Below are positions 18,415-23,208 of a DNA stretch of 64,000 bases, piece by piece; within the stretch, counting starts at the first letter, position 1, and every line of letters starts with the position of its first letter. A program made the position numbers and the translations under genes. The stretch is from Pseudovirgaria hyperparasitica (taxonomy: Eukaryota), in NCBI GenBank assembly GCA_010093815.1, contig ML996567.1. The stretch is one strand, 5' to 3'. Below the pieces are notes generated by a model, which was not told where the DNA came from, did not search any database, and was given only the letters and a program-made list of their open reading frames with translations.

Positions 18415-19609
18415 GGAAATCGTGGATTAAACAGAAACCTGAAGCACGGATCACCGCACTCCTTTGTCTCCTACGAACTGTTTGATCTCGTCTTGGTTCC
18501 TGCAGTAGCAAGGAATCCGGTTCACATGAAGTATCTTATGCTCTCGTTGGCAAGCATACAACCTCAGTCTCTACTATTGTGTGTGTACTGAGAATTTGAT
18601 CGCCTCTGGCAAAAGCCTGGCTTAGGCACGGGGGAGGGGCGGACTCAGTCATGAACAGAAGCTCTTCATACTTGACATCAAGCAATGAGAATTCAAGTGT
18701 CCTCATAGGGAGTGAGTGAGTGAGCTAGTAGAGCTAAGTAGGTATGTACTCAATGACTGTATCTGCCGTGCCCGAGAATGAATGTACAGTACAACACCAA
18801 GCAGTCAATGTGCCGCATCAGTATGAAAGGGCCATGACTAAGAAGCAGTATTGAGAGAGCACTGCACCACACACGAGATGAGCAGCAGTAGGAAATCCAC
18901 GTTTAACCTGTACTGTATTCTAGCGCCAAGACCAAATGCCCCCCCCCTTTCGAGTCTCGAGCTTGTACCTAAATAATTAGAGTCTGCGATCTAATAATAC
19001 ACATAAAGTAGTAAGATTAGCGCCCGATCGCGCGTGGCTGGGGCATGGATGTTCGCTGTTCCAGGCCCTGCGTGCTGCTGGCTGCTGCTGCGCCGTCAGG
19101 GGGAAAAAGGCCAGGTTCCTGGGCCATGCTTGAGCATGCATGCATGCGCACAGCTGAGCCTGAAACTCCCGGATCGTGAAGAAGACCCACGATTCTAGGC
19201 GATCGGATTAGCATGCATGGCTTAATGATCCAAGCCAATATAATGACTCCAGGATGTTGGGTAAGATGTGGCGCAGCTAGACAGCACGAGAATAAAGTCA
19301 GAAGATCGACAAAAGTCGAGACGAGTGCTTGGGCGCGCATTGACTCAGCACTGGTTTTGGCGCTGATTTACGTAAATTGTATGCTACATTGGAGTTGATT
19401 AACGAAAAGATGCTTGAGAAATGTGTCTATTAAAAACATCTACCCTGTTCTCTTTCAGCGGCTGTAAGCGCCAGGGATATCTCTGCTATGCCACGTCTCT
19501 CTCCCAACCAACTCCAACTGCCAAACTGGTTATATGTCGCGTCATAGCTGCCAAACAAAAGAAATTGCATACAATGAACGAACTGTAAATATGGGGAAAT
19601 AGACGTCGA

Positions 19610-19669
19610 TGAATGAATGTGCACTTCTGTGCTACCTGATCTACGCCAGGTGGCCAGCAAGACTCCGCA
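19610..19669 (-). repeat. Diverged direct duplicate of the last 20 codons of the LITAF gene (original at 19781-19840)
   Basis: The copy encodes CGVLLATWRRSGSTEVHIHS versus CGVLLATWHRSGSTEVHIHS in the gene. The offset is 171 nt. Confidence 0.9.
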
Positions 19670-19777
19670 CTCGACTTTTGGTTTACAACACGGGACTGTC
19701 CCCTTGGGAGCCGCCCAATATCATTCAAAAGACATGCAAGTTAAAGAACGACAAAAGTCATCTCGCGTATTCAATGA

Positions 19778-20377
19778 CTAGCTGTGAATATGCACCTCAG
19801 TGCTACCTGACCTGTGCCAGGTGGCCAGCAAGACGCCGCAGCGTCCACACTTATGTTGGACATCTTTCAGCGAGTTCATCAGGTAGGGAATGCAGCCGAG
19901 ACAGACGAGACAGCACAAAGCGAGTGCCCAGGCGCTAAAGCATAGTTAGCAAATATGCCGCGGCGAAGCGTGGCGCACGAAAGTCTAAACTTACTGTGTG
20001 GAGTTACCAACTTCATAGTTGATGCTGCTCATGGCGCGCTGGCCACAGGCAGGGCAATCTACAGGTGCAGGGCCACGTCCGAGTGAGGCAATAGGGGTTA
20101 CATTCTGGAATTGACGTTGCTCGGTGCCTTGCATCATCTGGGATTGAGCGCCGGGTGTGTGCGCTTGAGGAGCGGGCGAGCCAGCAAATTGACCAGCTGG
20201 AGGTGAGCCGGCATATTGGCCAGTATGTTGAGGCTGTTGTTGGAAGTACTGCGGCTGGCCAGTCTGTTGATGCTGCATGGGAGACTGAGCTGGGTAGCCC
20301 TGAGGAGGAGCATACGGCTGTCCTTGGGGAGGAGGGCTGTTTGGGTCGTGATATACGGGCGGTTGTTGAGAATGCAT
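19778..20377 (-). CDS. LITAF-domain (zf-LITAF-like) membrane-associated protein, 2 exons: 20377-19995, 19934-19778 (179 aa)
   Basis: Pro/Gln-rich N-terminus, then PAPVDCPAC ... hydrophobic segment WALALCCLVCLGCIPYL ... KDVQHKCGRCGVLLATW, i.e. two CxxC knuckles flanking a hydrophobic stretch. Intron 19935-19994 is GTAAGT..GCTAAC..TAG. Confidence 0.9.
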
Positions 20378-23208
20378 CTCAGTGGCTTGAGGGTAAGTGG
20401 CTCCTGATCCAACAATAAGCTTGTGCCGAACGAAGAAGCGCGAACCATTTTGCGAATTGCGTACCTTGCTTCTCCATTGTGAACGAAAAGTTGTCTTGTT
20501 AAATTAACGGTATATCTGGTACTGTGGGCGTGGCTGAAGTTGAGGGTTGAAAGTATCGGAGAGAACAAAAGTCGTGTAAAGTTGGGAATAAGGACCTATA
20601 TATTAGGACCGGGTACAAATTACAAGGCTGAGCGAAAGGCCCACGGTTCGGCCCCAATTGGCCAAAAGTTGAGCGCTTCACCACCACCGTCTGGCTCCCC
20701 TCCCGTATTCTGACTCTGGAACACACAATCTATGCACGCTGGACCTCAGCTCGTTGCCCTTAACAGTGGAGTTGGCGTGGCGGAGGGGCCAGCTACGGAC
20801 CCGCTGATTGGCTGACTGCTGCGGATCAGACACGCTAGTCAGATCTGGTCAGATTCCTCCTAGGCCGGCCGCCGCGAGAGCCACAAGGCAGAATTGGGGT
20901 CGATAAACGGACAAGTCGTCTTGCACGCGCCCAATGACCATCGTTGTGGGCGCATGAGGATGAAGCAGAACTTACCTGCATATCTGGCTAGACGTTCTCC
21001 TTGCATCTCCTCATAGCAGCTAGAATCGTCTGCAGCTATTGTCTCGTGTTCGGCAGTGCGAGCTCCAACCGTAGTCATTTGCGTTGTTCCAGTCTTCCAG
21101 ATGGACTGGATGCCAATGCACTATTTAACGTCCGAGGAAGTAATTGGGTATCTTTGTGCAACCAAAAAAATGCCCGTTCCTATATCATGTCGGAATCCCC
21201 TCTGCGCCAGGGATCGGAAACGCTTGACACTCCTCCATAGTGATAGCCTCTGATGATGCCGAAATAGAAGACGCCGGGAACTGACAGCTTCAGGGTTTCG
21301 TTCCTCAAAGTAGTAATCGCGGTAGTCCTATCATATCTTATACGTTAGACCCCTGGGCTGCTAAAGCTCTAGTATGCCACCCAGTGAACATACACCCCAA
21401 ACTCGGTGTTCCGGTATACTCTGTCTTCATGTCCATCATGGCTTGCAACGCATTGGTCTCTCCGCATCCAAATGCTCTTTCATACATTGACTCTGAAGAA
21501 GAAGCCATAACAATTTAACGACGGATGTCACCGTGTTCCATGTCCCAGTAGCCACGGCGCGTGGCTGTGAGAGTCGGCTGCAGGTAGGGTCCAGTCCCAC
21601 CTTTAGCACTAGCCAAGTACAGGGGCAAGCGAGCTCTCAGCTGTTGAGTATCGCGTCCAGTTTCGACACCATCTTCTTGAGATGCTTCATAGCATAAGCC
21701 ACTGTCGAAAATCGCCATGCCTCAGACTAGCCGGAGCTGAGGAAGGCATCGACGCGGGCTATATCTGGTGCCTGCGAAAACAGGGCTCTAAATCATATTA
21801 TAGCCTTGTGTCTGTGAGAGTTGGGACTATGTGGTAGGATGAGGTGATCAAGATCCGGTCGAAGAATGACAGTCACAGAGGGTCCTGCTGACCGTAGATT
21901 TGATTGAGACTTCAAAGCAAAACAAGGAAACATACGACAGTGGACGTTGTGAGGTGGGGCCACTACCATTTATATGTGCGGACACAACCACAACAAGGTA
22001 CTCAAGTGCAACTTCCATGTGGTCCCTTGGTCCCAGGCTAGCGCCTCGTCGCAATACGCGTACAGATCACGAGAAGACGTAAGCAGGTTGAAGTGCCAAC
22101 ATGTAATTAAGCATCTTTAGAATCTGCTTATGTGTTCGAGCAGTACGAAGAACCTAAGAATGGAACATATAGCCATCTGCTTCATCAGATGCGATAATGT
22201 TGGCTACAGCCATGTCGTATGATGTCCACTTGTCAGTTAAGTCATGATGGAAGCCAGGATGCTCGTAAGTGTTTGTTCTAGGATTCCTGGCCTCCTCTGT
22301 TCCACTCGTGACTATCATTGCAAAATTAGAAATTCGTCATGCTATTTGTCCTGAGGTCGTTTTCCTCTAATCGCTTTGTTTAACTCCTCTGCTTCGTGCA
22401 CTCAATTTGTCTCATCTGTGCGAGACCGCAACGAAATACTGCTTTGATTTCATTGAGACAAATGGCGCGGCAATCAGACCCTCGCGTCCACTCTCAAACA
22501 GTCATACCCGCAAGTGAGTCAAACTGAATGCCGAGAGGAGTCGATCGAAGAAATGGTAGGAACAGATAGACCTAAAGTATCCGACATTGGAGTATAAGAT
22601 TTTCGTTACTACACCTTCATGAATGTGTGTGAACTGAAGAAAGCAGTTCAGTCATTATCCACGTAGACAAACACCGAACGCAGTAGATTGTGAATTGGCG
22701 TCACGGATAGGGTTGTCAGCACTAGGCTTGCTTGAAGCGCGATATATCTATCGTACGACACAATAAAATGTCTCCGGCATTTCGTAAGATGCTTACGCGT
22801 CTATGTGTGTCTACGGCTTCACTGCACATTCATCGCTGGCTGTCTGTATTAAAGCCGATTTGTATTCAGAATGATTACTGTTGAATAGAAGCACTCTAGG
22901 AGTAGAATATAAACTTCGGGCATAATGCAGGGCGGGCCGGAGCACCCCTGGAAGCTTGCACCGAAGGGGGAAGAGCCGAGCTCCAAACGCGACAACAACC
23001 TCGCTCATCTTCGGCGCTCGAGTTCGGGGATGTGGAACATGGAATCAGTATACTCAAATGTTCTGCGCTTTTCTCAGTACGCGTCAACAAAACCAATCGC
23101 AATGGCGCCGCCCTCGGTCTCCATCTCTCAACATCCTCTAACATTTCACTTTTCATCTTCCAAAGATCACAGCTTGTTTGCTCGCGTGCCCAAGCTTGAA
23201 TCCCCGCC

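Follow-up and report, generated by a model that had tools for sequence, protein, structure and literature searches.

A transcribed duplicate of the last coding segment of a LITAF-domain gene in Pseudovirgaria hyperparasitica: present-day exon or relic?

What does a second copy of a gene's last codons do when it lies a short way beyond the stop codon, in the same frame and with nearly the same amino acids? The question is raised by a LITAF-like zinc-ribbon gene on the minus strand of contig ML996567.1 of Pseudovirgaria hyperparasitica (GenBank assembly GCA_010093815.1), a dothideomycete of the order Acrospermales, of which we analyzed a stretch of 64,000 nucleotides (nt), referred to throughout as the window. 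The gene extends from start to stop codon over 19778..20477; we call its terminal coding segment copy 1 and the diverged duplicate downstream of it copy 2. A preliminary description of this locus had offered three explanations for the duplicate, namely an alternative C-terminal exon, an intron being born, or the remnant of a formerly functional tandem paralogue. Based on our analysis, copy 2 very likely has no coding role today, and we somewhat favor the explanation that it is a transcribed, untranslated relic of the gene's terminal coding segment, now lying in the 3' untranslated region (UTR) and formerly coding.

A repeat search recovered the duplication as a direct repeat of 56 nt at 88% identity (19614-19669 vs. 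19785-19840) with a start-to-start distance of 171 nt, or 57 codons, and no further copies beyond these two were found in the window (blastn-short, E 4.8e-10). Copy 1 (19784..19840, minus strand) comprises the last 19 homologous codons of the coding sequence (CDS), reading CGVLLATWHRSGSTEVHIH, and is followed by the codon AGC and the TAG stop. Copy 2 (19613..19669, minus strand) reads CGVLLATWRRSGSTEVHIH, agrees with copy 1 at 49 of 57 bases, is immediately preceded by AG (19670-19671), and has lost the stop codon, with CAT TCA TCG standing where copy 1 has CAC AGC TAG. Translated over 60 nt, copy 1 gives CGVLLATWHRSGSTEVHIHS and copy 2 gives CGVLLATWRRSGSTEVHIHS; 8 codons differ, by 11 bases in all. 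Three of these differences belong to the last codon (AGC/TCA), which lies beyond the alignable core and whose Ser/Ser match may be chance. The 19 homologous codons hold the other 8, of which 7 are at third positions and 1 is a second-position change from H to R at H181, a column that is invariant in 13 of 13 aligned proteins. G or C occupies the third codon position in 10/19 codons of copy 2 and 14/19 of copy 1. Both copies contain TCAG/GTAGCA, with the AG/GT boundary between 19807 and 19806 in copy 1 and between 19636 and 19635 in copy 2. The preliminary description had reported the in-frame repeat of 20 codons 171 nt downstream, the 8 of 20 differing codons with a single amino-acid change, and the shared CAG/GTAGCA; repeat search, translation and recounting bear these out, with the qualification that the last codon falls outside the alignable core.

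The stretch between the copies (19670..19783, minus strand) holds the last codon, the TAG stop and 108 nt of UTR, and the copies are parted by two in-frame stops, TAG at 19780 and TGA at 19723 (19721-19723). Copy 2 sits within a stop-to-stop open frame of 96 amino acids (19430..19720, minus strand), which is open, as had been noted, down to the stop at 19430-19432, and which we judge to be non-coding. This frame reads ...CCKPKVECGVLLATW (KPKVECG), keeping the last knuckle Cys alone and lacking HxCxxC. It matches no Pfam family at E up to 1 and none of 1.84 billion representative proteins at E up to 0.001, and a 41-amino-acid query from it found no word-sharing candidates among longer proteins, which is weak evidence. 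A plus-strand frame spanning both copies (19603-19938, 111 amino acids) was also considered and rejected; many residues differ between the copies there, which leaves the minus-strand LITAF frame as the conserved one. Repeat-induced point mutation, which needs repeats far longer than the present one, was likewise set aside, as inspection of the core counted 6 transitions and 2 transversions with a single CpA to TpA change.

Is copy 2 spliced into the mRNA's coding part today? Three sequencing runs cover the locus (X1, X2 and X3, the latter two from one sample), none of them recorded as RNA; the X2 and X3 contigs lack both canonical GT..AG introns of the gene and were therefore taken as derived from spliced RNA. 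In total, 54 contigs aligned to 19100-20700 (52 from X2, 1 from X3 and 1 from X1); these are assembled contigs rather than raw reads, and contigs drop rare variants. The joints of the X2 and X3 contigs correspond to two introns alone. One joint lies at 19935-19994 (skipping 60 nt, CT..AC), matching intron 2 (19935..19994, minus strand; 60 nt, GTAAGT...CTAAC...TAG, splitting the LITAF domain), and the other lies at about 20403-20463 (skipping 61 nt, cut +1), matching intron 1 (20404..20464, minus strand; 61 nt, GTACGC...CAG, phase 1, after MEKQ). An X2 contig covers 19382-19934 unbroken and then continues across intron 2 to 20127, the X3 contig covers 19443-19934, 19995-20402 and 20464-20700, and there is no joint within 19382-19934 in the contigs of either run. 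Depth in bins across 19424-19909 is that of a single contig per run, with no second assembled form. The junctions 19807>19635 and 19807>19695, which the preliminary description had put forward as checks on its splicing proposals, are missing from the joints of all 54 contigs, as is anything into 19669, with rare isoforms lying beyond contig reach. The one X1 contig (166 nt, 19735-19900) is unspliced across the stop.

Since contigs run unbroken through copy 1, the TAG and copy 2, copy 2 lies in the 3' UTR of the assembled mRNA (19382..19777, minus strand), which is at least 396 nt long in X2 and is followed to 19443 by the X3 contig. The protein of this mRNA ends ...HIHS, as its orthologues do, with copy 2 behind the two in-frame stops, which also rule out stop-codon read-through into it. 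Minor splice isoforms, of the kind that assembly would drop, are possible. As a separate observation, the X1 contig is identical to the window at a depth of 2.3, X1 being labelled organism A and X2/X3 organism B; it may represent carry-over, the same fungus on another host, or a labelling matter.

Was copy 2 translated in the past? The preliminary description had considered the nearly synonymous pattern of differences unexpected for neutral 3' UTR sequence. We evaluated it against a null that is fair to the parent, in which copy 1 takes synonymous changes alone and copy 2 is neutral. Under this null the chance of a third-position difference is 0.445-0.464 and the probability of 7 or more of 8 is 0.017-0.022 (0.0026 if every change fell in copy 2). 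The repeat itself is clearly beyond chance; the third-position bias is so only modestly. Nonsynonymous and synonymous divergence between the copies (NG86) are dN 0.023 and dS 0.86, a ratio of 0.027, with 1 of 38 first and second positions changed. At third positions the copies agree in 12 of 19, no higher than copy 1 agrees with its best orthologues among 60 loci compared (12 for L001 and L014, 11 for L031). With third-position identity resembling that of orthologues from other fungi, the split between the copies, taken at face value, looks old, yet first and second positions are almost intact, a pattern suggestive of former protein-level constraint on copy 2.

For comparison with relatives we used metagenome contigs, in which 71 fungal loci carry relatives of the gene, together with related proteins. 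Among 12 of 12 relatives the C-terminus comes directly after ...HKCG[RK]CGVLLATWHRSG..H.H plus one residue, with no extension; the tail is nearly invariant across them, and W180, H181, R182, S183 and G184 are invariant in all 13 aligned proteins. The best non-self protein aligned over nearly the whole query has about 50% identity. A tblastn search with the 28-residue tail gave two good matches in the window (E 1.7e-17 and 7e-10) and a comparable second tail match in 0 of 71 loci; second matches did occur in 12 loci, at E 0.003-0.82, all of them upstream, on the opposite strand, or an exon before an intron. No duplicate of the last 60 coding bases was found within 1 kb in any of the 63 loci with at least 200 nt downstream, where the best local score was 12 and the median 9, vs. 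42 in the window. Together, these comparisons indicate that the duplicate is specific to this lineage and that the sequence beyond copy 2 is not conserved coding sequence.

The tail lies in one uninterrupted match including the HxCxxC knuckle, as in copy 1, in 66 of the 71 loci, and two others (L068 and L071) gave poor matches only. In L066 (3279-3359) and L067 (3012-3088), however, a phase-0 intron of the form ...HKCG[QK]/gt...ag/CGV... makes the last 20 codons an exon of their own, and L059 (near 2976) apparently has the same phase-0 intron, as read from the tblastn listing with its donor unread. Such an intron before CGV is thus seen in 3 of 71 loci and is present neither in the 66 loci nor in the window gene. 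We also observed that the otherwise rigid LITAF tail varies in some lineages, with four loci (L061, L062, L064 and L065) carrying a longer one, ...LLATWHRSASQHCPVDVHQYS, in which additional residues, another Cys among them, stand between RS and VH.

The 5' edge of the repeat coincides with the start of the Cys codon TGC (19669), giving AG/TGC in copy 2, and it falls exactly at the phase-0 intron position of L066 and L067 (and apparently L059); the repeat thus corresponds closely to a segment that forms its own terminal coding exon in a few distant fungi. Homology ends abruptly on both sides, and the stretch between the copies could be aligned neither with sequence upstream of copy 1 nor with sequence downstream of copy 2. 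In local alignments of the flanks, 491 of 500 shuffles reached the observed score upstream and 170 of 500 did so downstream; in anchored extensions the figures were 1071 of 2000 upstream and 75 of 500 downstream, with 2000 of 2000 in a further extension of this kind. These abrupt ends are the pattern that would be expected of an old exon set between an intron and a UTR. Two hints of wider similarity were discarded: a collinear patch (offset 170), whose 26 identities in 74 positions lie between the background 95th and 99th percentiles of 25 and 27, is too weak, and a MAFFT hint of upstream similarity across a 4-nt gap was not supported by the anchored extension test.

We therefore consider it plausible, though unproven, that copy 2 is the remnant of a once-functional duplicate. 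In the history we propose, it would have been duplicated from the terminal coding segment and held under protein-level constraint for much of the time since, either as the last exon of a tandem paralogue that has since lost its remaining exons to deletion, or as a second terminal exon entered via the AG before TGC. It would later have lost its partner exons or its splice access, lost its stop codon and taken the H-to-R change at an invariant residue, and would now be without function of its own. A formerly coding copy 2 would explain the intact amino acids despite large synonymous divergence, the unalignable flanks, and the AG/TGC edge. The remnant of a functional tandem paralogue, one of the three explanations first offered, fits this evidence and is contained in the account we prefer, with the reservation that an intact paralogue was found in 0 of 63 loci.

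Several observations weigh against this history. The argument for constraint rests on 8 differences, picked after the fact in a scan of 64 kb, for which a P of about 0.02 is weak, and saturation of third positions made an attempt to polarize these differences with 40 distinct orthologous 57-mers uninformative. That the repeat edge coincides with the intron position was likewise spotted afterwards, the three loci that carry this intron are distant (35-65% identical in the best segment), and the gene today has no donor after ...HKCGR able to splice to copy 2. A close relative of this species is absent from all collections searched, and among the relatives that were found none has an intact paralogue or a second terminal exon. 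In addition, a rare spliced isoform is beyond what contigs can rule out.

It is also conceivable that copy 2 is in use today, as a rare or condition-specific terminal exon or through its TCAG/GTAGCA site, paired with that of copy 1 as acceptor and donor of a nascent 171-nt intron, either of which would yield a C-terminally extended LITAF protein. The AG/GT in both copies, the spacing by a multiple of three and the frame open to 19430 all agree with such use, ongoing selection would yield the third-position bias, and segmental duplication is documented as a source of introns, with Hellsten et al. 2011 (PMC3265369) demonstrating experimentally the creation of an intron by tandem duplication of an AGGT segment. 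The locus itself offers little to sustain it: the sole assembled RNA form is unspliced across the region, and the proposed intron compares poorly with the confirmed ones when judged by the consensus motifs of donors and branch sites, having the poor donor GTAGCA and a length of 171 nt where the confirmed introns have GTAAGT and GTACGC and lengths of 60 and 61 nt, a third of that. As the preliminary description had itself remarked of a strong branch site, no CTRAY-like motif is present near its acceptor, where intron 2 has CTAAC. Only 56-57 nt of the 171-nt unit between the AG/GT sites are duplicated. Splicing would not restore the protein: the joined frame would extend as far as the stop at 19430-19432 and append 59 residues without relatives, whereas in all 12 relatives the tail ends with HIH plus one residue. 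On these grounds neither a nascent intron nor an alternative C-terminal exon is supported, and we regard present use as very unlikely. The preliminary description had named two observations that would tell against its splicing proposals, transcripts that end before copy 2 or never splice into it, and relatives with a full tandem paralogue decayed here; the absence of splicing into copy 2 holds as far as the contigs show, and the intact paralogue was not encountered in the 63 loci.

The main contrasting account would dispense with any coding past, holding that the 56-57 nt at the CDS end were copied recently as a patch, by slippage or templated repair, and have drifted neutrally, the third-position excess being chance combined with constraint on copy 1. 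Overall divergence of only 12%, the failure of anything beyond the core to align (as expected if the core alone was copied), the missing stop and changed invariant His of copy 2, and its absence from 63 of 63 relatives are all readily accommodated by this, and the fair-null probability is not overwhelming for a pattern picked by eye. It has more difficulty with 7 of 8 differences at third positions, with a dS resembling between-genera synonymous change alongside 1 of 38 changed first and second positions, and with breakpoints of which one lies where the coding sequence ends and the other at a codon boundary occupied by an intron in some other loci; we judge it possible, though on balance doubtful. 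Less probable still is a turnover of terminal exons, in which copy 2 would be the former separate last exon, reached via AG/TGC and maybe still used under some condition, until a second copy of it, joined to the exon before and bringing its own stop, took over and left the older one behind in the UTR with its protein sequence almost unchanged; we hold this to be unlikely. Finally, we give hardly any weight to the idea that copy 2 is maintained for a role at the RNA level within the 3' UTR, whether as a binding site or as a structure in common with the coding end. Copy 2 is indeed transcribed within an abundant-looking mRNA and its core is better kept than its flanks, but third codon positions are not where RNA-level selection would place the differences, the predicted fold of the 3' UTR is no better than that of shuffled sequence (z 0.12; 51 of 100 shuffles as good), a search of 19000-20900 gave no Rfam match at E up to 1, and such a copy occurs in 0 of 63 related loci.

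Comparison with known systems places copy 2 in context. A model in which an intron arises when an exon segment containing AGGT is duplicated in tandem is reportedly due to Rogers (1989), and the potato RdRp (RNA-dependent RNA polymerase) gene is said to be another case of an intron arising by tandem duplication. The present locus shares with that process a direct in-frame duplication with AG/GT in both copies 171 nt apart, but it differs in that no splicing between the copies is seen in assembled RNA, that the repeat covers a minor part of the unit, and that the duplication spans the gene end, so that splicing would drop the stop and extend the protein. It also resembles duplicated alternative terminal exons, with two near-identical coding segments in series at the gene end and the second copy placed after AG at the intron position of three fungal lineages, whereas here no intron separates the first copy from the exon before it, a stop closes that copy, and no junction leads into the second copy in the assembled contigs.

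Closest in form are unprocessed partial gene duplicates, or pseudo-exons: copy 2 has homology to the parent CDS, no route to translation, and signs of decay in its missing stop, its H-to-R change and its lower third-position GC. Like them it is short, adjoins its parent on the same strand, has no start, stop or remainder of the domain, and is absent from relatives. Unlike them it lies inside the parent's own 3' UTR and is co-transcribed, and nearly all of its differences are synonymous; this is unusual in a dead fragment and hints that copy 2 once went through a coding phase. With respect to LITAF/SIMPLE-like proteins (PF10601), the host gene has the CxxC and HxCxxC knuckles around a hydrophobic stretch and a tail highly conserved across Dothideomycetes, whereas copy 2, consisting of the last Cys and the tail only, is not a LITAF domain on its own.

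The host gene is an ordinary, already annotated member of the LITAF-domain family, its extent supported by Pfam PF10601, protein identity and spliced contigs. Its CDS consists of exon 1 (20465-20477), exon 2 (19995-20403) and exon 3 (19781-19934), all on the minus strand, the last followed by the TAG stop at 19778-19780. This three-exon model agrees with the sequence of a 192-amino-acid database protein of Pseudovirgaria hyperparasitica (hypothetical / LITAF-domain), to which the exon-2 translation is 100% identical; the gene product, P0001, is likewise 192 amino acids long and is 100% identical to that protein. The exon-3 translation matches PF10601 with 39.3 bits (cut-off 23.8, E 7.6e-10, profile positions 29-70 of 70) and that of exon 2 with 20.9 bits (profile positions 2-27), and the whole of P0001 is assigned to PF10601 in a precomputed list. 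Its knuckles read ...DCPACG...AWALALCCLVCLGCIPY...HKCGRCG..., with Cys/His columns that are invariant in 13 of 13 aligned proteins; a CxxC knuckle, a hydrophobic stretch and an HxCxxC knuckle in this order make up what we take to be the LITAF architecture. No second LITAF gene that could have been the source of copy 2 occurs within the 64-kb window.

Two further features of the gene's upstream part were observed in the contigs. Over the region coding for the Gln/Pro-rich N-terminal part (20098-20362), X2 has many short contigs (60 nt) stacked on one another with one mismatch each, which may be allelic variants, very-high-depth errors, or low-complexity cross-matches; in the same region a 20-nt sequence is directly repeated at a spacing of 39 nt (20217-20236 and 20256-20275). 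In addition, LITAF exon 1 is connected with about 2 kb of sequence upstream of 20700 in a 2275-nt contig of X2, whose depth is one tenth that of the CDS contig, and the X3 contig reaches only about 136 nt beyond 20700. The 2275-nt contig represents a long alternative leader or else a transcript of the neighboring gene that overlaps here (window 20464-20700 and beyond).

As it stands, the duplicate matters little, being a lineage-specific remnant that a small duplication left in an ordinary gene's UTR, and its presence is a matter of ordinary genome evolution. It does serve as a worked example of how a short duplicate whose differences appear "all synonymous" provides weak evidence (P about 0.02) once constraint on the parent is allowed for, and of how RNA contigs can directly reject an intron in the making, as they do here for the main transcript. 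If terminal exons did turn over at this gene, the event would be an intron loss or exon replacement by duplication and not a clean cDNA-mediated excision; and if copy 2 was truly an exon until recently, then the locus would document the disappearance of a terminal intron through exon duplication.

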